Shown: positions 2,084 through 52,218, numbered from the stretch's first letter. The stretch is 64,000 nucleotides of DNA from Candidatus Iainarchaeum sp. (GCA_017609625.1 JAFCDN010000002.1:2785-66784); one strand, 5' to 3'. A program made the numbers and translations. The notes: generated by a model not told the origin, from the letters alone.

Positions 2084-2545
2084 ATGCAATTTGAATATTT
2101 AGAGCACACAGCAGATTTAAAGTTTCGAGCTTTTGGAGAGACAAAAAAAGAGTTAATAGAAAACTCTGGAAAAGCTTTATGCAATGCAATAATTGATTCT
2201 GGCAGTGTGGAAGAAAAAGGAAAAGGAATTATTGCAGTGCAGGCAGAAAACTTTGAACAGGTTTTGTTTGATTTTTTAAAAGAAGTTTTGTTTCAGATTG
2301 ACACGCAAGAAATTATTTTTTCAGAGTTCAAAGTAACTGAATTAAAAGAAGCTGAACCGCCTTTTTCAGAAAAAGGCAGGTTGCCAAAAACCAAAAAAGG
2401 GATTTTTCTAAAAGTTGAAGCATCAGGAGAAAAAATAAATTTAGATAAACATGAAGTGAAAACAGAAATCAAAGCAATAACAAAACATGATTTTAAAGTA
2501 GAAAAAAAAGAAAAATGGATTGCAGAAGTTTTAGTTGATGTGTGA
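2084..2545 (+). CDS. Archease (RtcB activator) carrying a palindromic-repeat-encoded insert
   Basis: MQFEYLEHTADLKFRAFG... archease N-terminal signature; RtcB lies 600 bp downstream; insert EAEPPFSEKGRLPKTKKG is encoded by the repeat at 2355-2392. Confidence 0.85.
   Translation: MQFEYLEHTADLKFRAFGETKKELIENSGKALCNAIIDSGSVEEKGKGIIAVQAENFEQVLFDFLKEVLFQIDTQEIIFSEFKVTELKEAEPPFSEKGRLPKTKKGIFLKVEASGEKINLDKHEVKTEIKAITKHDFKVEKKEKWIAEVLVDV
2355..2392. repeat. Type-B palindromic repeat (GCCTTTTTCAGAAAAAGGC + AGGTTGCCAAAAACC) in frame inside the archease CDS
   Basis: Near-copies at 17468-17503, 24983-25018, 26076-26114 and 26303-26340. Confidence 0.7.
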
Positions 2546-3173: not shown

Positions 3174-4598
3174 ATGAAGCAAATAAGTAAAGGCATTTGG
3201 GAAATTCCAAAACAAGGAAAAATGCTAGTTCCAGGAAGAGTATATGGAACAAAAAAAATAGTTGAAGAAATCGAAGACAATGCAATAACACAATTAACTA
3301 ATGTAGCTGAACTTCCAGGGATACAAAAATATTCTATTGCCATGCCTGATGCTCACCAAGGATATGGAATGATAATCGGCGGGGTAGCAGCATTTGATGC
3401 AGAAAATGGAATAATTACTCCTGGCTCGATTGGTTTTGATGTAAACTGTGGGATCAGACTAGTAAAAACAAATTTAACAGAAAAAGATGTTAAAGGAAAA
3501 GAAAAAGAAATTTTAAATGAATTGTTTAATCAGGTCCCAGCTGGCTTGGGTTCAAAAGGGCAGTTCAGAGCTAATAAAGAACAGCTACAAGAGGTAATGC
3601 TAAAAGGTTCAGCTTGGGCAATAGAAAACGGTTTTGGATGGAAAGAAGATTTAGAGAAAACAGAAGAAAACGGAAAAATGCAGGAAGCTGATCCGAAAAA
3701 TGTTTCAGAAAAAGCAATTCAAAGAGGGTTGCTGCAGTTAGGTTCTTTAGGTTCAGGAAACCATTTTTTAGAGATACAAAAAATTGAAGAAATCTTTGAT
3801 GAAAAAACTGCAAAAGAGTTTGGTCTGCAGAAAGGAAAATTATGTTTAATGATTCACTGTGGAAGCAGAGGCTTTGGACATCAGATTGCATCAGATTATC
3901 TTGATACAATGGAAAAAGCAATGAAAAAATATGGAATAAAAGTGAGTGACAAGCAGTTAGCGTGTGCTCCGATTAATTCAGAAGAAGGAAAAAAATATTT
4001 CAGTGCAATGGCTTGTGCAGTAAACTATGCTTTTGCAAACAGGCAGATGATTTTGCACTGGACAAGAAAAAGCTTTGAAAAAGTTTTAGGAAAAACAGCA
4101 GAAGAAATGCAGCTGCATTTAGTTTATGATGTAGCACATAATATTGCAAAATTTGAAGAACACGAAATTGACGGCAAAAAAATGAAAGTTTTAGTGCACA
4201 GAAAAGGAGCTACAAGGGCTTTTCCTGCAGGAAAAAAAGAAAATCCTTTATCTTATATGAAAACAGGCCATCCTGCATTAATTCCTGGTTCAATGGGGAC
4301 TGCTTCCTGGGTTGTAGTTGGAACAGAAAAAGGACTGGAAGAAACTTTTGGTTCTGTCGCGCACGGAGCAGGCAGGGTTATGAGCAGATCAAAGGCAATT
4401 AAAACCAAAAGAGGAGAACAAGTGCAAAAAGAACTTGAACTGCAGGGAAAATTTGTTAAATCCAGAAGCCCAAAAACTCTGGCAGAAGAAATGCCTGAAG
4501 CATACAAAGACGTGGATGAAGTGATAAAATCTTTAGAGATTTCAGGGATAGCAAAAAAGGTTGCAAGAATGATTCCGATTGGAGTAGTAAAAGGTTAG
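3174..4598 (+). CDS. rtcB: tRNA-splicing ligase RtcB
   Basis: 474 aa; AMPDAHQGYGMIIGGV, GIDVNCGIRL, HRKGATRAFP and GSMGTASWVV motifs of RtcB. Confidence 0.95.
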   Translation: MKQISKGIWEIPKQGKMLVPGRVYGTKKIVEEIEDNAITQLTNVAELPGIQKYSIAMPDAHQGYGMIIGGVAAFDAENGIITPGSIGFDVNCGIRLVKTNLTEKDVKGKEKEILNELFNQVPAGLGSKGQFRANKEQLQEVMLKGSAWAIENGFGWKEDLEKTEENGKMQEADPKNVSEKAIQRGLLQLGSLGSGNHFLEIQKIEEIFDEKTAKEFGLQKGKLCLMIHCGSRGFGHQIASDYLDTMEKAMKKYGIKVSDKQLACAPINSEEGKKYFSAMACAVNYAFANRQMILHWTRKSFEKVLGKTAEEMQLHLVYDVAHNIAKFEEHEIDGKKMKVLVHRKGATRAFPAGKKENPLSYMKTGHPALIPGSMGTASWVVVGTEKGLEETFGSVAHGAGRVMSRSKAIKTKRGEQVQKELELQGKFVKSRSPKTLAEEMPEAYKDVDEVIKSLEISGIAKKVARMIPIGVVKG

Positions 4599-10953: not shown

Positions 10954-11001
10954 AACAAACTTTTAGAAAAAGTTTGATCAAAACAAAAATTAGGTGAAAA
11001 A

Positions 11002-11881: not shown

Positions 11882-12754
11882 ATGATTGAAAGAACATTCA
11901 TAAAACAAGGAATAAAAAAAATTGAAATGGAAAATTATTTGAAGAAAGAACTGTATAAAGCAGGCTTTACAAAACTGGAAACAATGAAAACCCCTTTAGT
12001 AACAAGAATTGTATTAAATGTAACTCACCCAGGCCTTGCAATAGGAAAAGGCGGAACAAACATAAAAAAGCTTACAAGGGTATTAGAAGAAAGATTTAAA
12101 GTGCAAAATCCTCAAATTGAAATAAGAGAAATTACTGTGCCGGAATTGGATGCACAGGCAATGGCAGACAAAATATCTTCTTTAATAGGAAGAGGATTCA
12201 GCTGGAGAAGTGTAGTTTACAGAACATTAAAAGCAATAAGAGGCGCAGGAGCACAAGGAGCAGAAATAGTTTTATCAGGAGCATTAGGCGGAAAAGGAGT
12301 AAGAAAAAGAAAACAAAGAATAGCAGAAGGGTATATGAAAAAAATAGGAGAACAGGCAAAATTAGTTGATTACGGTTGTGCGCCGGCAAAAGCAAAATTC
12401 GGAACAATAGGAGTAAAAGTAAGAATAGTAAAGCCAGAAACAGTTTTTCCGGATAAGATTGATATTAAAGAAATAATTGAAAGCAGAAAAGACAAAGCAG
12501 AAGAAGAAAAGAAAAACAAAAAAGAAAAAGAAGAGAAAAAGGAAGAAAAAAAAGACAGTAAAGAAGAAAAAGAAGACTCAAAAGAAAAACACAAAAAACA
12601 CGAGAAAAAAGAAAAAGAAGACAAAGAAGAAAAGAAAAAACACCAAACAAAAAAAGAAGATAATAAAAAAGAAAAGAAAAAAGAACATCCAAAAAAAGAA
12701 ACTGAAAAAAAGAAAGAAGAAAAAAAAGAAGACTCAAAAGCGGAAAAGAAGTGA
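11882..12754 (+). CDS. rps3: 30S ribosomal protein S3 (uS3) with a ~90-aa Lys/Glu-rich C-terminal low-complexity tail
   Basis: KH domain LVTRIVLNVTHPGLAIGKGGTNIKKL...; the tail is KEEKKDSKEEKEDSKEKHKK... Confidence 0.9.
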   Translation: MIERTFIKQGIKKIEMENYLKKELYKAGFTKLETMKTPLVTRIVLNVTHPGLAIGKGGTNIKKLTRVLEERFKVQNPQIEIREITVPELDAQAMADKISSLIGRGFSWRSVVYRTLKAIRGAGAQGAEIVLSGALGGKGVRKRKQRIAEGYMKKIGEQAKLVDYGCAPAKAKFGTIGVKVRIVKPETVFPDKIDIKEIIESRKDKAEEEKKNKKEKEEKKEEKKDSKEEKEDSKEKHKKHEKKEKEDKEEKKKHQTKKEDNKKEKKKEHPKKETEKKKEEKKEDSKAEKK

Positions 12755-12758
12755 TTAA

Positions 12759-13073
12759 ATGGTGGCAATAAAAGGAAAAGAACTAAGAGGGCTGCCTGCA
12801 GAAGAACTGGAAGAAAAAGTAGTTTCTCTAAAAAATGAATTATCAAAAGAAAAAACACAAATTAGTTCAGGGACAAGAGCAGAAAACCCTGGAAAAATAA
12901 AAAAAATAAGAAGAGAAATTGCAAGAACGCTTACAATAATTAATGAAAAGAAAAAAACAAAAGCTTCTAAAGAAACAGAAAAACAACCTTTAAACCTTTT
13001 AGAAAAAGCTTTACCAAAACAAAAGGTTGAACAAAAAAAGGAAGAAAAAAATAAAAAGGAGGTAAAAAAATAA
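12759..13073 (+). CDS. rpl29: 50S ribosomal protein L29 (uL29) with a K-rich C-terminal extension
   Basis: LRGLPAEELEEKVVSLKNELSKEK...IKKIRREIARTLTIIN. Confidence 0.85.
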   Translation: MVAIKGKELRGLPAEELEEKVVSLKNELSKEKTQISSGTRAENPGKIKKIRREIARTLTIINEKKKTKASKETEKQPLNLLEKALPKQKVEQKKEEKNKKEVKK

Positions 13074-13666: not shown

Positions 13667-13931
13667 AAAAAGAGAAGAAAAAAGCATCAAAGTCAGAGGC
13701 AACATATTCAAAGGAATAGTAGTTAGCAGCAAGCCAAGCAAAACAGTAATAATTGAAAGAATTATTACAAAAAAAGTTCCAAAATACGAAAGATACAAAA
13801 AAACAAAATCAAAAATCTCTGCGCATAATCCTGAATGGATTAACGCAAAAGAAGGGGACACAGTAAAAGTAGGAGAAACAAGAAAATTAAGCAAAACAAA
13901 AAATTTTATAGTATTAGAGGTAGAAGACTAA
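13659..13931 (+). CDS. rps17: 30S ribosomal protein S17 (uS17)
   Basis: 90 aa; GIVVSSKPSKTVIIERIITKKVPKYERYKKTKSKISAHNPEWINAKEGDTVKVGETRKLSKTKNF. Confidence 0.9.
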   Translation: MSKKREEKSIKVRGNIFKGIVVSSKPSKTVIIERIITKKVPKYERYKKTKSKISAHNPEWINAKEGDTVKVGETRKLSKTKNFIVLEVED

Positions 13932-13967
13932 CCTTTTAAGAAAAGGTTAAACAAAAAGGAGAAAAAT

Positions 13968-14367: not shown

Positions 14368-15000
14368 GTGATTAAAATGAAAACAAAAAAACCTTCAAAG
14401 CAAAGAAGAAGATTATACAAAGGAAAACTCCATGAAAGGAAAAATGTTTTAAGTGCACATTTAAGCAAAGAGTTAAGAAAAGAAACAGGAAAAAGAAGTT
14501 TAATGGTAAAAAAAGGAGACAAAATTAAAATAATGAGAGGACAGCACAAGAAAAAAGAAGGAAAAATACTTCAGGTTGATCATAAAAAAGCAAAAATTTT
14601 CATTGAAAAAATTACAAGAAAAAAAGCAGACGGAACAGAAAAACTGATTCCATTTAAGGCAAGCAATTTGGTTTTATTGGAACTGGAAAGAAAAGATGAT
14701 AAAAGATTGAAAAGAGCAAAACAACCTTTTTCAAAGAAAAAGCTTGACCAAAAAACTGAAAAAGAAGAAAAGGAAAAAGAAACAAAAACTGAAGAAAAAC
14801 AACCTTTTTTAGAAAAAAAGGTTGCAACTCAAACCAAAAGTTTGAGTGCACAACAAAATCAAGATTTTGTTAGTGAACAAAAAACTGACCAAAAAAAAGA
14901 AGCACCAAAAGAAACACCTTTTTCAGAAAAAGGGGTAACAAAAACACCAGAAAAAAAAGAAACAGTTAAAGAAGAAAAGAAAGAGGAAAAAAAGGAGTGA
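14368..15000 (+). CDS. rpl24: 50S ribosomal protein L24 (uL24) with a ~100-aa C-terminal extension built from palindromic repeat elements
   Basis: KOW core MVKKGDKIKIMRGQHKKKEGKILQVD; the tail contains ...KQPFLEKKVATQTKSLSAQQNQDFVSEQK... and ...TPFSEKG... Confidence 0.9.
   Translation: MIKMKTKKPSKQRRRLYKGKLHERKNVLSAHLSKELRKETGKRSLMVKKGDKIKIMRGQHKKKEGKILQVDHKKAKIFIEKITRKKADGTEKLIPFKASNLVLLELERKDDKRLKRAKQPFSKKKLDQKTEKEEKEKETKTEEKQPFLEKKVATQTKSLSAQQNQDFVSEQKTDQKKEAPKETPFSEKGVTKTPEKKETVKEEKKEEKKE
14791..14885. repeat. ~95-nt composite three-hairpin repeat element, copy A, in frame in the rpl24 3' extension
   Basis: AACCTTTTTTAGAAAAAAAGGTT + CTCAAACCAAAAGTTTGAG + ACAAAATCAAGATTTTGT; a copy at 51911-52005 differs by 1 nt. 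Confidence 0.8.
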
Positions 15001-16776: not shown

Positions 16777-17313
16777 ATGAAAGGACAGGAAAAAATAACT
16801 GAAGTTCCGGAAGGAACAAAAGCAGAAGTCCAAGGGAACACAGTAAAAATCAGCGGAAAGCTGGGAACACTAGAAAGAGATTTTACCCACAACAAAGTGA
16901 AAATAGAAATACAGGAAAACAAAATAAAAATTTCAACAAAAGAAGTTTCAAAAAGAACAAAAAAAAGGATAAACACAGTTAACGCACACATAAAAAATAT
17001 GATTATAGGAGTAACAAAAGGTTATACTTACAAAATGCAGATTGTTTTCTCACACTTTCCAATAAATGCGACAGTAAAAGGAGATACAGTTGAAATAGTA
17101 AACTTTGTGGGAGAAAAAAACCCAAGAAAATCAAAAATAGTCGGACAGACAAAAGTTGAAATAAAAGGAAAAGAAATTACAATAACAGGAAACAACAAAG
17201 AAGACGTTGGACAGACAACAGCAAATATAGAAAAAGCAACAAAAATAAAAAACAGGGATTCAAGGGTTTTTCAGGACGGAATATATTTAACAGGAAAAGC
17301 GGTGAGCGAATAA
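16777..17313 (+). CDS. rpl6: 50S ribosomal protein L6 (uL6)
   Basis: ITEVPEGTKAEVQGNTVKISGKLGTLERDF...; ATG at 16777 is preceded by AAGGTG; the ORF track extends to 16756. Confidence 0.85.
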   Translation: MKGQEKITEVPEGTKAEVQGNTVKISGKLGTLERDFTHNKVKIEIQENKIKISTKEVSKRTKKRINTVNAHIKNMIIGVTKGYTYKMQIVFSHFPINATVKGDTVEIVNFVGEKNPRKSKIVGQTKVEIKGKEITITGNNKEDVGQTTANIEKATKIKNRDSRVFQDGIYLTGKAVSE

Positions 17314-17954
17314 TGCCAGAAGAAACAAAAAAACAAACAGAAGGAAAAAAAGAATCACCAAAAGAAAAGAAAAAAGAGATACTTACAGAAAAAGAGGAAG
17401 ATTTAGCCAAAGAAGAAAAGAAAACCACAAAAAAAAATGATAAAAAAGAAACCAAACCAACAACTGAAAAACCTGCTTTTGAGAAAAGCCAGGTTGCCAA
17501 AACCAAAGAAGAAAAAAAGCCTGCTGAGAAACCCAAACCAAAAAAACCAGAGAAGCCAAAAGCAGTGAACAAAATAGAAAAAACAAAAGAACAGAAAAAA
17601 TTGCAGGAAAAAATAAAAGAAAAAAAAGTCCCAGTGATAAGGGGAAACTTTGGAAAAGCATGGTTAAGAAGAAAAGCAATAAAAAAATGGCAGAAATGGA
17701 GAAAACCAAGAGGAATAGATTTTAGATTAAAAAAAGAGAACGGAGCAAAACCAAAAATGGGTTTCAGATCTCCAGCAGAAATAAGAGGACTGCACCCCTC
17801 AGGCCTGCAGGAAGTTTATGTGAGAAATTTAAATGAACTGAAAGAAATAAAAGAAAAAAATAAAGTAATAAGATTAAACGGAAATATCGGAAAGAAAAAG
17901 AAAAAAGAAATACTAAAAAAAGCCAAAGAAAAAAAAATGAGGATACTAAACTAA
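17313..17954 (+). CDS. rpl32e: 50S ribosomal protein L32e (eL32) with a ~100-aa K/E-rich N-terminal extension containing a palindromic repeat
   Basis: Core GKAWLRRKAIKKWQKWRKPRGIDFRLKK...GFRSPAEIRGLHPSGLQEVYV; the extension includes KPAFEKSQVAKTKEEKK, encoded by the repeat at 17468-17503. Confidence 0.85.
   Translation: MPEETKKQTEGKKESPKEKKKEILTEKEEDLAKEEKKTTKKNDKKETKPTTEKPAFEKSQVAKTKEEKKPAEKPKPKKPEKPKAVNKIEKTKEQKKLQEKIKEKKVPVIRGNFGKAWLRRKAIKKWQKWRKPRGIDFRLKKENGAKPKMGFRSPAEIRGLHPSGLQEVYVRNLNELKEIKEKNKVIRLNGNIGKKKKKEILKKAKEKKMRILN
17468..17503. repeat. Type-B palindromic repeat variant (AAACCTGCTTTTGAGAAAAGCCAGGTTGCCAAAACC) in frame inside rpl32e
   Basis: Differs by 2 nt from the copy in rps4 at 24983-25018. 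Confidence 0.7.
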
Positions 17955-24187: not shown

Positions 24188-25048
24188 ATGGGAGACCCAA
24201 AAAAAACAAAAAAGAAATACATCAGGCCAAGAAAACCTTGGGACAGAACCAGGCTAGATGAAGAAAGAAAACTAAAAGAAACTTATGGACTGAAAAACAA
24301 AAAAGAGCTTTGGGGATTGGAACAAATACTAAAAAGCAAGAGACAAAACGCAAGAAAACTGCTTGCATTAGAACTGGAAAGAAGGCTTAAAAGAGAAAAA
24401 GAATTAATGGACAGCCTGAAAAAAATAGGTTTAGTAAAAGAAAATGCTTCACTGGATGACATTTTAAGTTTAAGAATAGAAGAGTTTCTTGAAAGAAGGC
24501 TTCAGACAATAGTCTGGAGAAAAGGACTTGCAAACACAGTAAAACAGGCAAGACAATTCATTGTTCACGGACATATAGCAATAAACGGAAAAAAAGTAAC
24601 AAAACCCTCATATATTGTTAAAACAGAAGAAGAAGGAAAAATAAATTACTACAAAAAACCTCTCAAACTGAAACAGGAGAAACCTAAAACAAAAAAAGAC
24701 TTGAAAAAAGAATTCAAAAAAGCAGAATCAACAGAAGGGGCTGAAAAGCAATTAAAAACAGAAGGAAAAAATAAAGATTTAGTTAAAGAAAAAACTGAAA
24801 CAAAAAAAGAATCTCCTAAAGCAGAAAAAGAAACCCCAAAAACTAAAAAAAAGAAAGAAGAAAAACCAAAAAAAGAAAAAACTGAAGATAAAAAAACAGA
24901 AACAAAAGAAAAGGAAGAAAAAGAACCTCAAAAAACTGAAGAGAAACCAGCAGAAAAATCAGATGAAAAACCAAAAACAGAAAAACCAGCTTTTGAGAAA
25001 AGCCGGGTTGCCAAAACCAAAGAGAAAGAACAAGGTGAAGAAAAATGA
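24188..25048 (+). CDS. rps4: 30S ribosomal protein S4 (uS4) with a ~130-aa K/E-rich C-terminal extension ending in a palindromic-repeat-encoded peptide
   Basis: Core ...[34 protein letters not shown]...; the tail ends ...[24 protein letters not shown]. Confidence 0.9.
24983..25018. repeat. Type-B palindromic repeat variant in frame at the 3' end of rps4
   Basis: AAACCAGCTTTTGAGAAAAGCCGGGTTGCCAAAACC; encodes [12 protein letters not shown]. Confidence 0.7.
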
Positions 25049-26010: not shown

Positions 26011-26225
26011 GCAGGGGTACCCAAGCGGTCAACGGGGCAGGACTTAAGAAACCTTTTTCAGAAAAAGTTTCATCAAAACTGCCTTTTTCACAAAAAGGCA
26101 AGCTGCCAAAAACGTTTTCGTTTCACGAAAACACGCAAAGCGTTTTTTGGTAAATCTTTTTTGAAAAAAGATTTTGGGAGATCCTGTGGCTTAGTGCCTT
26201 CGAGAGTTCGAATCTCTCCTCCTGC
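26011..26225 (+). tRNA. tRNA-Leu(UAA), class II with a long variable arm, containing a 132-nt intron at the canonical 37/38 position (26049-26180)
   Basis: Acceptor GCAGGGG pairs with CTCCTGC, discriminator A; U8, A14, G18G19 present; anticodon stem CAGGA/TCCTG; loop CTTAAG|A with anticodon TAA; 15-nt variable arm TGGCTTAGTGCCTTC; T-arm GAGAG-TTCGAAT-CTCTC; no encoded CCA. Confidence 0.8.
26049..26180 (+). other. tRNA-Leu intron composed largely of palindromic repeat units
   Basis: Contains AAACCTTTTTCAGAAAAAGTTT, a type-B unit (26076-26114), a CGTTTTCG...CGAAAAC hairpin and AAATCTTTTTTGAAAAAAGATTT. Confidence 0.65.
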
Positions 26226-26302
26226 ATAAACTTTTTAGAAAAAAGTTTAATCAAAAAAAAACCTTTTTAGAAAAAAGGTTGAACAAAAACAAAGTTTAAT
26301 CA

Positions 26303-26340
26303 AAACCGCCTTTTTAGAAAAAAGGCAGGTTGCCAAAAAA
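26303..26340. repeat. Type-B palindromic repeat, intergenic copy, inside a cluster of three hairpin units at 26229-26345
   Basis: AAACTTTTTAGAAAAAAGTTT, AACCTTTTTAGAAAAAAGGTT and CCGCCTTTTTAGAAAAAAGGCAGGTTGCCAAAAAA occur in series. Confidence 0.7.
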
Positions 26341-26357
26341 TAAAAAAACGTGAAAAT

Positions 26358-27885: not shown

Positions 27886-28593
27886 ATGGAAAAAGAAACA
27901 ACAACCGAAACAGAAAGATACCTGAAAACAGGAGCACATATCGGAACAAAATACAAAACAGGAAATATGCTGAAATATATTTACAAAAGCAGAGAAGACG
28001 GATTAAAAGTAATGGATATTAAGACACTAGATGAAAGAATAAACATTGCTGCGAAATTTATTTCAAAATATGAAAAAGAAAAAGTAGTTGTTGTTTCAAG
28101 AAAACTATATGGAAAAACCCCAATAAAAGAATTTGGAAAAGCAACCGGAACAAAAGCAGTTCACGGAAGGTTTGTTCCAGGATCATTCACAAACCCTGAA
28201 GGAAAAAAATTTATTGAACTGGCTTTATTGATTGTAACAGAACCAGATACAGATTTTCAGGCAATAAAAGAAGCAAAAAAGTTGAAAGTTCCTATTATTG
28301 CATTATGCTCAACAAACAACTCAACAAAAGACGTTGATTTAGTTATTCCAGTGAACAATAAAGGAAGAAAAAGCCTTGCTTTAGTTTACTGGACGCTTGC
28401 AAAAATAATTTTACTTGAAAGAGAAGAAATAAAAAACGAAAAAGAATTCAAAAAAACAACTGAAGACTTTGAATACAAAATAAAGGAAGGCAAAGAAGAA
28501 CTAATGAAAGAAAGAATGGCAATGGAAAGCAAAAGAAAAGGCAAAGGAAGAGGCAGAAGAGGCCCTCCAATTAAAAGGCCTATGAGGCGCTAA
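27886..28593 (+). CDS. rps2: 30S ribosomal protein S2 (uS2)
   Basis: 235 aa; ...YLKTGAHIGTKYKTGNMLKYIYKSREDGLKVMDIKTLDERI... Confidence 0.9.
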   Translation: MEKETTTETERYLKTGAHIGTKYKTGNMLKYIYKSREDGLKVMDIKTLDERINIAAKFISKYEKEKVVVVSRKLYGKTPIKEFGKATGTKAVHGRFVPGSFTNPEGKKFIELALLIVTEPDTDFQAIKEAKKLKVPIIALCSTNNSTKDVDLVIPVNNKGRKSLALVYWTLAKIILLEREEIKNEKEFKKTTEDFEYKIKEGKEELMKERMAMESKRKGKGRGRRGPPIKRPMRR

Positions 28594-28595
28594 AC

Positions 28596-28690
28596 CTTTT
28601 TAAAAAAAAGGTTTAACAAAAACAAACTTTTAGAAAAAGTTTGATCAAAAAAACCTTTTAAAAAAAGTTTCACTAAAAAGATTAATGATA
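28596..28690. repeat. Intergenic array of three palindromic hairpin units (AAACCTTTTTAAAAAAAAGGTTT, AAACTTTTAGAAAAAGTTTG, AAACCTTTTAAAAAAAGTTTC)
   Basis: Same family as the 10953-10990, 13922-13950 and 26229-26345 copies. Confidence 0.65.
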
Positions 28691-44333: not shown

Positions 44334-45038
44334 TTAGCCCTCTAAAAGTTTTTCTATTACTGCTCTGAATTCTTTTGCTTCTGAATCCAAATCGTTTTCT
44401 CTTTCATAGCCGTTTCCTATTCTAGAGTATTTACAGCCAAAAATAAAATTCGGAACATAGCCTTTTGGATTGAATTGCTGATAAATTGCTTTCTCTGAAG
44501 CCGGAACAGAAGTTTCAACTTCTGAAGTCAAAGTATTGTCTCCAGTATCCAGTTTCCAATGAAATGCAACAATTTTTTCTTCATCAATTAATTCTTTCAT
44601 TGCAGAATCAAAGGTTTCTAAAATCCAAGTGCAGTGAGGACAGCTAGTAGTTGAAAACAATCTTACAACAGGTTTTCCGTCTTCCAAACAAATTTCACCG
44701 TCTGTTTCAATAAAAGTTCCAAAAGTTCCAATGTCTTTTGGTTCTATTGTTTCTTCTCCATTTTCTCCTGGATCATTTGTCGTGTCAGAACCATCTATTG
44801 TATCAGAACCATCTATTGTATCAGAACCATCTATTGTATCAGAACCATCTATTGTATCAGAACCATCTATTGTATCAGAACCATCTATTGTATCAGAACC
44901 ATCTGTCGTGTCGTCAGTTTGTTCCTGCTGAGCAGAAGTGTTTGTTGTGTTTGTTACTGACTGGTTTATGCATCCGCTGACCAAAACAAACAAAATTAAA
45001 GTTACTATAATTAATTGTTTAATGATTTCGCCCTCCAA
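44334..45038 (-). CDS. Thioredoxin-fold (CPHC) lipoprotein-like protein with a (DGSDTI)x7 linker
   Basis: N-terminal TM then LVSGC lipobox-like; 7 tandem DGSDTI units; ...RLFSTTSCPHCTWILETF... thioredoxin CxxC. Confidence 0.6.
   Translation of the reverse strand: MEGEIIKQLIIVTLILFVLVSGCINQSVTNTTNTSAQQEQTDDTTDGSDTIDGSDTIDGSDTIDGSDTIDGSDTIDGSDTIDGSDTTNDPGENGEETIEPKDIGTFGTFIETDGEICLEDGKPVVRLFSTTSCPHCTWILETFDSAMKELIDEEKIVAFHWKLDTGDNTLTSEVETSVPASEKAIYQQFNPKGYVPNFIFGCKYSRIGNGYERENDLDSEAKEFRAVIEKLLEG
44785..44910. repeat. Seven tandem 18-bp repeats (TCAGAACCATCTATTGTA on the + strand; 6 perfect and 1 variant) inside the thioredoxin-like gene
   Basis: Direct reading of the sequence; encodes (DGSDTI)n on the - strand. 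Confidence 0.9.
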
Positions 45039-51415: not shown

Positions 51416-52021
51416 GTGATTAATTTGGTTGAGCATAAACAAGAAAAAGAAGCAGAAAAGCATAAAGACAAGAAAAAACAAAAAAAAGACCCTAAAGATG
51501 TAAAAATTGAAGAACTGACTGAATTAGTTAAAAGAGTTCAGGCAGAATTTGAGAATTTCAAGAAAAGAGAAGAAAAAGACAGGAAACAATTTGTAGAGTA
51601 CAGCAATGCAGAATTGATTTCCAATTTGCTTCCTGTTTTAGATTCAGTCCAAGCAGCCGAAAATACAGAAGAAGCAAAAAAATTAATTCAACCAATAAAA
51701 ACACAATTAACACAAGTATTAGAAAAATATGGATTAAAAGAAATAGAAGCTCTAGGAAAAAAATTCAATCCAGAATTGCATGACTGTTTAATGCAAGAAA
51801 ATGATTCAGAAAAAGAAAATAATATTGTATTAGAAGAACTGCAAAAAGGATATACTTTGAAAGACAAAGTTTTAAGGCATGCAAGAGTGAAAATCAACAG
51901 AAAAAAAACAGAAGAAAAACAACCTTTTTTAGAAAAAAAGGTTGCAACTCAAACCAAAGGTTTGAGTGCACAACAAAATCAAGATTTTGTTAGTGAACAA
52001 AAAAAAGGAGAAGAAAAATAA
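51416..52021 (+). CDS. grpE: Nucleotide exchange factor GrpE with a palindromic-repeat-encoded C-terminal tail
   Basis: ...LLPVLDSVQAA...GKKFNPELHDCLMQE...; the tail KKTEEKQPFLEKKVATQTKGLSAQQNQDFVSEQKK is encoded by repeat copy B. Confidence 0.8.
   Translation: MINLVEHKQEKEAEKHKDKKKQKKDPKDVKIEELTELVKRVQAEFENFKKREEKDRKQFVEYSNAELISNLLPVLDSVQAAENTEEAKKLIQPIKTQLTQVLEKYGLKEIEALGKKFNPELHDCLMQENDSEKENNIVLEELQKGYTLKDKVLRHARVKINRKKTEEKQPFLEKKVATQTKGLSAQQNQDFVSEQKKGEEK
51911..52005. repeat. ~95-nt composite three-hairpin repeat element, copy B, in frame at the grpE 3' end
   Basis: Differs from 14791-14885 by 1 nt (AAAGG vs AAAAG). Confidence 0.8.
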
Positions 52022-52218
52022 TAGTAAAAAATTAAATTCAAAATTTTTAGGAGATAAATTTTATGAATATAGAAGTTCAAGAAGAATTTGAGGAAGAAGA
52101 AATTCCAGAGATTCCAGAAGATGCAAAACCAGAACCTTTTTCAGAAAAAGGTTCAGAAAAAAACCAGAAAAAATTAAGGTTTGAGATTTATGCAAATTAA
52201 AAAAAAAGGTGATAAAAA

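Follow-up and report, generated by a model that had tools for sequence, protein, structure and literature searches.

The window analyzed here is a 64,000-nucleotide stretch of DNA from Candidatus Iainarchaeum sp. (GCA_017609625.1, JAFCDN010000002.1, positions 2785 to 66784). It is archaeal, has a G+C content of 32.7%, and carries ribosomal-protein operons (S4e, L32e, L19e) and a grpE-dnaK-dnaJ cluster; the homologs of its proteins are labelled Diapherotrites or DPANN. The 3' end of the grpE open reading frame (ORF) contains a repeat, copy B, that recurs as copy A in the C-terminal tail of ribosomal protein L24 (gene at 14377 to 15000). The features at the two sites, in window positions, are as follows.

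51416 to 52021, plus strand: grpE ORF, with its core to about 51898 (…VKIN) and a tail of low structural confidence at 51899 to 52018
51914 to 52006, plus strand: composite three-hairpin element, copy B, at the grpE 3' end, coding for EKQPFLEKKVATQTKGLSAQQNQDFVSEQKK (cmsearch with model R1, 116.2 bits; also fold, frames, and alignment)
51920 to 51944, plus strand: HP1, CAACCTTTTTT-AGA-AAAAAAGGTTG, a T-run/A-run hairpin of a dispersed family
51947 to 51967, plus strand: HP2, ACTCAAACC-AAA-GGTTTGAGT, with a 9-bp stem and compensatory changes in two pairs among copies
51969 to 51995, plus strand: HP3, CACAACAAAATC-AA-GATTTTGTT(A)GTG, with one outer pair changed from C-G to G-C in the L017 copy
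14794 to 14886, plus strand: composite element, copy A, in frame in the L24 C-terminal tail (cmsearch, 113.9 bits)

Positions 51911 to 52005 in grpE and 14791 to 14885 in the L24 tail are identical at 93 of 95 bases; an earlier note on this DNA had counted 94 of 95 at identical coordinates. The mismatches fall at 51959 (G in copy B, A in copy A) and at the edge base 52005 (A and C, respectively). Searching the window for the 95-nt pattern with up to three mismatches returned these two sites only, and no match was found in 100 shuffles. A repeat search stretched the pair to 121 nt at 92% identity, the added flanks being A-rich and of low complexity.

As RNA, 51911 to 52005 has a predicted folding energy of −29.1 kcal/mol (z = −6.3; 0 of 200 shuffles folded equally well), and as DNA it gives a z score of about −6.5 for either strand. 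The fold consists of three near-perfect consecutive hairpins, HP1, HP2, and HP3. Copy B is in frame within the grpE ORF and codes for the peptide EEKQPFLEKKVATQTKGLSAQQNQDFVSEQKK, and copy A has the same frame and the same peptide. Thus, the repeat that the earlier note had described as shared by the grpE tail and rpl24 is real, is made of three hairpins, and lies in frame. Of the element's six reading frames, five contain stops and one is open.

The GrpE tail and its orthologs

The GrpE core extends to …RHARVKIN, as judged from the Pfam match (residues 8 to 161) and from alignment, in agreement with the earlier placement of its end near RHARVKINR. About 30 to 32 of the 40 tail residues are coded by the element. 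The tail had previously been taken to consist of some 35 residues coded entirely by the repeat, which is right for most of its length, whereas RKKTEEK on the 5' side of the element and KGEEK on its 3' side are ordinary K/E tail. The ORF ends after KGEEK with TAA TAG. Structure prediction had been proposed with and without the tail; the tail-bearing protein was modelled with AlphaFold2, which gave pLDDT values of 77 to 91 for the core and 45 to 59 for the tail. The predicted tryptic peptides of the element-coded tail are VATQTK and GLSAQQNQDFVSEQK.

GrpE orthologs align as far as …RH(A/S)KVKIN and thereafter carry variable K/E-rich tails of 3 to 45 residues. As the earlier note had suggested, we aligned the closest orthologs (the nearest is 67% identical), and the QPFLEKK… segment was absent from 17 of 17, none of which carries a homologous element-coded tail. 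This absence, together with the presence of the repeat in unrelated genes of other genomes described below, bears out the proposal that the GrpE extension comes largely from a repeat foreign to grpE. A motif scan found related hairpin-coded insertions in only three others among the 120 homologs listed, each elsewhere in the protein. The GrpE proteins of L015 and L016 carry family hairpins at an internal site, and that of P0012 has a related motif, at the peptide level only, in the N-terminal linker, near the N terminus. Orthologs of L24 likewise have variable K/E tails, and the element is absent from them.

The flanking tail codons have counterparts in relatives: RKKTEEK is partly common to the tails of L018 and P0010 (KINRKPEK…), and the DNA of the window's GrpE tail aligns weakly, in its A-rich part, with that of the L001 tail. 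We considered whether the L001 tail might be a decayed copy of the element and rejected this idea: only the A-rich 5' part aligns (score of 30, versus 22 ± 3), and the L001 tail is therefore native.

From these alignments, the element is probably an insertion into an existing disordered GrpE tail, with the native TAA TAG stop kept. The earlier note had proposed instead that the grpE stop was replaced through read-through into an inserted element, which as stated is unsupported, since orthologs carry K/E tails and the element is flanked by tail codons. Loss of the stop followed by read-through is possible but less simple: insertion into the tail is the more parsimonious course because GrpE proteins of the clade are all K/E tailed and tail codons lie on both sides of the element.

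A conserved small ORF between grpE and dnaK

52063 to 52200, plus strand: conserved 45-aa small ORF between grpE and dnaK, carrying an in-frame hairpin unit at 52130 to 52156 (EPFSEKG)

A third, partial unit had been reported in the grpE-dnaK spacer at 52133 to 52155. These coordinates were off by one base (the unit is at 52132 to 52154), and the unit is not in a spacer; it is an in-frame insertion within the small ORF. The ORF is conserved between grpE and dnaK in L001 (10586 to 10720), L002 (10506 to 10640), L015 (1670 to 1807), L016 (partial, at a contig end), L017 (10764 to 10928), and L018 (10597 to 10728), with lengths of 43 to 54 aa. Its product has an acidic N-terminal half, an …AKP… motif, a basic C-terminal part, and the C terminus [IV]YAN wherever the end is present; no Pfam family matched it, and the ATG of the small ORF overlaps the grpE stop codon in several relatives. 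Among carriers of the small ORF, only the window and L017 have the hairpin, which codes for EPFSEKG and PPFLEKK, respectively, and its arms differ complementarily (AACC/GGTT in the window, GCC/GGC in L017).

Composite elements in other genes and genomes

The ~91-nt core of the composite element has six independent sites, spread over at least four related DPANN ("Diapherotrites") genomes; five are in ORFs whose proteins are unrelated, and the sixth is intergenic. Scanning for exact matches to a 21-mer taken from the HP2-HP3 junction revealed three contexts beyond L24 and GrpE. These are the C-terminal tail of a GT2 glycosyltransferase in GCA_002763225.1 ('Ca. Diapherotrites archaeon CG10_big_fil_rev_8_21_14_0_10_31_34'; here CG10), a locus recovered identically from one MAG (L004) and two metagenome contigs (L005, L009); the middle of a K/E-rich zinc-ribbon protein (L007); and a site near the N terminus of a 5-FTHF-cyclo-ligase-like (MTHFS-like) protein (L008, P0241). 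Searching with covariance model R1, built from the close copies, revealed a diverged composite at L017 1725 to 1816 (GCA_043824355.1; 51.8 bits, E ≈ 2e-9), which is intergenic and directly follows the S6e stop codon.

The core runs from GAA(A/G)A(A/G)CAACC to GTGAACAAAAAA, and the flanks are unrelated among copies. The ends of the composite, GAAAAACAACC and GTGAACAAAAAA, do not form an inverted-repeat pair, and no target-site duplication is recognizable, although the A-rich flanks of the copies would mask a short one. Three of the five ORF copies (L24, GrpE, GT2) lie at gene 3' ends. In all five hosts the element lies in one common frame, which is preserved by a 3-nt length variant among the copies. 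Because a single frame is open, no peptide selection is needed for the five to share frame and orientation, and we rejected the constant frame as a sign of such selection. The CG10 and L007 copies have an additional UNCG-type hairpin, GCC(U/C)UCGGC-like.

A phmmer search of 1.84 billion representative proteins returned one other carrier only, P0241, and viral scans with the composite gave no matches. Two matches in viral scans with the core of a related unit (D15, described below) lacked the hairpin and were taken as chance, as was a 25-nt partial metagenome match (L006) adjoining a bacterial-type DnaB gene.

The 186-nt spacer between S6e and aIF2γ in L017 (1725 to 1917) is packed with hairpins (fold z = −4.9), comprising the diverged composite, a UUCG-loop hairpin, GTGCGAG..CTCGCAC, and a D15-like unit. 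The window lacks this spacer, the GTG start of aIF2γ (at about 38441) coming immediately after S6e; with this start, we rejected a truncation of aIF2γ in the window.

Conservation of the hairpins among copies

The sequence of the element is conserved between genomes far better than core genes are. The window and CG10 copies of the element share 96.5% identity, versus 82% for seven ribosomal-protein or translation genes of the two genomes, with third codon positions about 65 to 73% identical in the four equal-length genes for which the count is reliable. Another difference between the two genomes concerns RtcB, which has an intein in CG10 (L010 1 to 601; 983 aa, Pfam Intein_splicing) and none in the window (3174 to 4598, 474 aa).

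Substitutions among the five near-identical copies are confined to loops, loop-closing pairs, and the 5' edge. The changes at the peptide level are few and mostly nonsynonymous (K/E, G/S, D/N, and an L-E deletion), and the stems are preserved. When the L017 copy was included, 97.3% of cells were paired over 31 pairs in six copies. Both sides had changed in four pairs, versus 1.3 ± 0.8 in shuffles (2 of 500) and none in slid controls, counts that come from six sequences only and from an alignment fitted to the model. The hairpins are kept through these compensatory changes, which are not proof of selection, because DNA palindromes can also self-correct by template switching.

A dispersed hairpin family in the window

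The earlier note had treated the repeat as an oddity of two or three copies. It belongs instead to a subfamily of a dispersed hairpin family that is also present in noncoding DNA and in a tRNA intron: the composite is a member of a larger T-run/A-run hairpin family spread in a DPANN ("Diapherotrites") sublineage. Further members in the window are as follows.

2355 to 2398, plus strand: hairpin + GGTTGCCAAAAAC unit, in frame in an archease loop (PPFSEKGRLPKTKK)
10954 to 10978, plus strand: intergenic hairpin directly past the L2 stop codon, identical at 25 of 25 bases to 28621 to 28645
12991 to 13040, plus strand: L29-tail hairpin unit (QPLNLLEKALPKQKVEQK) with an ortholog in the L29 tail of CG10
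13929 to 13949, plus strand: hairpin that begins with the three bases of the S17 stop codon
14722 to 14746, plus strand: single hairpin unit in the L24 tail (QPFSKKKL)
14914 to 14936, plus strand: single hairpin unit in the L24 tail (TPFSEKGV)
17468 to 17511, plus strand: unit of the hairpin + GGTTGCCAAAAAC type in the L32e N-terminal extension (KPAFEKSQVAKTKE)
24983 to 25027, plus strand: unit of the hairpin + GGTTGCCAAAAAC type in the S4 C-terminal tail
26011 to 26226, plus strand: tRNA-Leu(TAA) with a 122-nt intron built almost wholly of four family hairpins
26227 to 26347, plus strand: three family hairpins, intergenic, from tRNA-Leu to the L18e gene
28589 to 28670, plus strand: three hairpins at or after the S2 stop codon
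54100 to 54134, plus strand: hairpin with 16-nt arms (one mismatch) and a perfect 12-bp stem, seven bases past the dnaK stop codon

Family hairpins (T-run, loop, A-run, including HP1) number 25 in the window, versus 0 or 1 in shuffles, and hairpins of any kind with stems of at least 8 bp number 49, versus 4 to 12. About half of the 25 lie in the noncoding 11% of the window; copy B and at least nine other family units lie inside ORFs. No family hairpins were found in the syntenic relatives L001, L002/L003, and L018. Among 81 T/A seeds, 21 have at least four of five complementary outer pairs (3.6 expected), and these have 15 different arm sequences; it is therefore complementarity that is kept, not sequence. 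Mismatches in imperfect stems are C·A, C·C, and A·G, with no G·U bias. The asymmetric units are all co-oriented with transcription, and many hairpins begin 0 to 7 nt past stop codons or overlap them.

The hairpin + GGTTGCCAAAAAC units (D15) are near identical in archease, in an intergenic spacer, and in a tRNA intron. The archease insertion amounts to about 13 aa relative to the archeases of PDB entries 4n2p and 8btx. Peptides of the PF.EK type recur in many protein tails, and in CG10 the ribosomal-protein operon carries family hairpins in the tails of S3 and L29.

The tRNA-Leu(TAA) gene with its intron was detected by the intron mode of ARAGORN only, being missed by the default tRNA scan and by Rfam. 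A tRNA-Thr(CGT) on the CG10-type contig L005 (complement of 250 to 445) has a 121-nt intron that carries the same module, a "hairpin + GGTTGCC" unit; the same intron also has a GTTTTCG..CGAAAAC hairpin with an inverted loop.

Several other repeats and low-complexity tracts were noted. The hairpin after dnaK is the longest of the window, and the identical 25-nt hairpins at 10954 to 10978 and 28621 to 28645 (AACAAACTTTTAGAAAAAGTTTGAT) lie in different spacers, after L2 and S2. S3 (12461 to 12754), L24 (14720 to 15000), L32e (17313 to 17560), and S4 (24700 to 25048) have very long K/E-rich low-complexity extensions; ribosomal-protein orthologs in relatives are also extended, but with differing lengths and sequences, and the plus strand of the window is 45% A. 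At least seven 18-nt units (CATCTATTGTATCAGAAC) are repeated in tandem at 44756 to 44930, where most neighboring genes are on the minus strand.

Searches for known functions and mobility genes

No bacterial-type intrinsic terminator was found on the sense strand; terminator-like sites occur on the minus strand only, at HP1 and at 52132 to 52154, and the family stems are A/T rich, not G+C rich. We also considered archaeal oligo(T) terminators and rejected them. Runs of five or more T's are common in ORFs (161 in plus-strand gene regions, 14 of them in family hairpins), and the family hairpins are therefore not the terminators of this genome.

An archaeal bulge-helix-bulge intron is not indicated either: three plain hairpins are predicted, and every ORF copy uses the sole open frame, which, with the 3-nt length variant, argues for translation over excision. 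Copy B does have the layout of a −1 frameshift site, with T_TTT_TTA and A_AAA_AAG in frame at 51925 to 51946 (and at 14805 to 14826 in copy A), 6 nt upstream of HP2, and the −1 frame stops at TAG TGA inside the element. The slippery heptamers are present in the GrpE, L24, and L008 copies and absent from the CG10, L007, and L017 copies; since they are not conserved, the layout is probably coincidental.

An Rfam scan of the window at gathering thresholds identified no family. Scans of 20 proteins, including 18 of the window's, revealed no transposase domain, and there is no RAYT or IS200/IS605 gene within the window. Literature searches turned up no account of elements of this kind from DPANN archaea.

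Discussion

Copies of the composite element are scattered over unrelated genes, over spacers, and over different genomes. We favor, with a probability of roughly 0.6, the reading that copy B is a short nonautonomous structured repeat, selfish or neutral, and that its peptide is a passenger. Insertion, or recombination between A-rich flanks, would have brought the element into the A-rich, K/E-coding, disordered 3' end of grpE, and it would have survived there by landing in its sole open frame, in a tolerant tail. It is predicted to be translated as a hydrophilic passenger peptide of about 30 aa, and the property that is conserved would act as a hairpin of ssDNA or RNA, that is, as nucleic acid and not as peptide. 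We infer mobility from the distribution of the copies, since no transposase, terminal inverted repeats, or target-site duplication was found. Against the selfish reading, the conservation and the compensatory changes could equally mean a selected function, and the proportion of composites in ORFs (five of six) exceeds what is expected of a random inserter, unless A-rich K/E tracts are preferred.

An alternative is a functional nucleic-acid module under selection, either an RNA or ssDNA structure for a lineage-specific factor or a REP-like device for mRNA 3'-end protection, processing, or attenuation, with the ORF copies as tolerated placements of a useful signal. The four compensatory pairs, which extend to the noncoding L017 copy, would fit such a module, as would the high identity of the element relative to core genes, the co-orientation of asymmetric units with transcription, the many hairpins just past stop codons, the three ORF composites at gene 3' ends, and the added UNCG-type hairpin of the CG10 and L007 copies. 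Yet copies also sit in the middle of an ORF and near an N terminus (L007, P0241), imperfect stems show no G·U bias, and T-runs are too common in ORFs, and bacterial-type terminator patterns too confined to the antisense strand, for a role as terminators; moreover, syntenic relatives live without these hairpins, and Rfam offers no match. We therefore consider this reading somewhat unlikely. That the peptide itself is the functional module, a linear motif or tail (QPFLEKKVATQTK…) recruited to several proteins with the DNA palindromy incidental, seems quite improbable, even though the ORF copies keep one frame, the peptide is similar across genomes, and PF.EK-type peptides occur in many tails. 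We rate it low because near-identical units occur in a tRNA intron and in intergenic DNA, because the frame is forced by stops in the other five, and because the few substitutions are mostly nonsynonymous while the stems are preserved. The hosts (L24, GrpE, GT2, MTHFS-like, archease) are also functionally unrelated, the pLDDT of the tail is low, and the protein search found a single further carrier.

A purely local event, in which the rpl24 and grpE tails were joined by duplication, gene conversion, or a chimeric assembly and no family exists, would account for the two window copies being mutually closest and sharing about 12 extra upstream bases, AAAAC(A/T)GAAGAAAAA. These bases also resemble the native L001 GrpE tail, however, and the same core is found in other genes, other genomes, and independent assemblies (NCBI, JGI, ENA), the CG10 locus being identical in one MAG and two metagenome contigs; we regard such an event as very improbable indeed.

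As a short nonautonomous structured repeat, the element resembles the Rickettsia palindromic elements (RPEs) in behavior, and its stop-adjacent copies resemble REP elements, although by this comparison it is a member of neither group. RPEs are short palindromic repeats found in frame in unrelated housekeeping genes (PMC10969869). With these the present elements have in common that they are short, hairpin-forming palindromic repeats scattered through a reduced, AT-rich genome, that they lie in frame within unrelated housekeeping genes, adding a conserved hydrophilic peptide at tolerant sites, and that they are found also in noncoding DNA or RNA genes, with no transposase known for either. The elements described here form stable hairpins, occupy five unrelated ORFs in one peptide frame, putatively translated, and have noncoding copies. 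Further details of RPEs behind this comparison were reportedly given by Ogata et al. in 2000. The differences begin with the host, a DPANN archaeon, which sets these elements apart from RPE-1 to RPE-10, to which no sequence relationship is shown. The units here are about 23 to 45 nt long and the composite 91 nt, versus about 100 to 150 bp for RPEs; they are modular, with small hairpins of T-run/A-run core set in tandem; they cluster in K/E-rich tails and just past stop codons and occur also inside tRNA introns; and near-identical copies are shared by genomes that are 18% apart in core genes.

REP elements and BIMEs are likewise imperfect palindromes of 20 to 40 nt, in many copies, often just downstream of stop codons in operons, with arms that vary while complementarity is kept. 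They differ in being extragenic by definition, in having a conserved head motif, and in their link to RAYT, whereas here the host is archaeal, many copies lie within ORFs, and neither a RAYT nor an IS200/IS605 gene is in the window. Prokaryotic MITEs, among them those of Sulfolobus and Haloquadratum, are also small, nonautonomous, multicopy, and able to make in-frame fusions, but we found no element-spanning terminal inverted repeats, recognizable target-site duplication, or parent IS for the elements described here. PARCELs are coding sequences with dyad symmetry that are patchily spread by horizontal transfer; in contrast to the single, hydrophilic insertions seen here, which have noncoding counterparts, they consist of a 25-residue amphipathic domain repeated in tandem within surface or membrane proteins. 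In fungal and chytrid mitochondria, double-hairpin elements and palindromic clusters are small mobile hairpins of AT-rich reduced genomes that invade spacers, introns, and coding sequence; they are organellar, and we know of no sequence relationship between them and the family described here.

A further, unlikely reading of the family is that it is a portable, translation-compatible RNA or ssDNA signal, which a DPANN lineage or its mobile elements would place at gene 3' ends, in tRNA introns, and in disordered protein tails and pass horizontally from genome to genome. If this were true, selection for binding by a lineage-specific factor would account for the near identity between genomes and for the compensatory changes, and the same modules would tie the lengthening of tRNA introns to that of K/E-rich protein extensions.

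Palindromic "selfish DNA in genes" inserted in frame has mostly been seen as peculiar to Rickettsia, and an independent archaeal system would show that it has recurred. Such recurrence would concern how proteins and genomes change in reduced, AT-rich genomes, the hosts here being ribosomal proteins, a chaperone, an RNA-ligase cofactor (archease), a conserved small ORF, and tRNA introns, and it would provide a second, phylogenetically remote case in which to seek the mechanism of spread. The family would also explain some of the lineage-specific tails and insertions that complicate DPANN annotation and phylogenomics, where caution is warranted in that the repeat segments are homologous across nonhomologous proteins.
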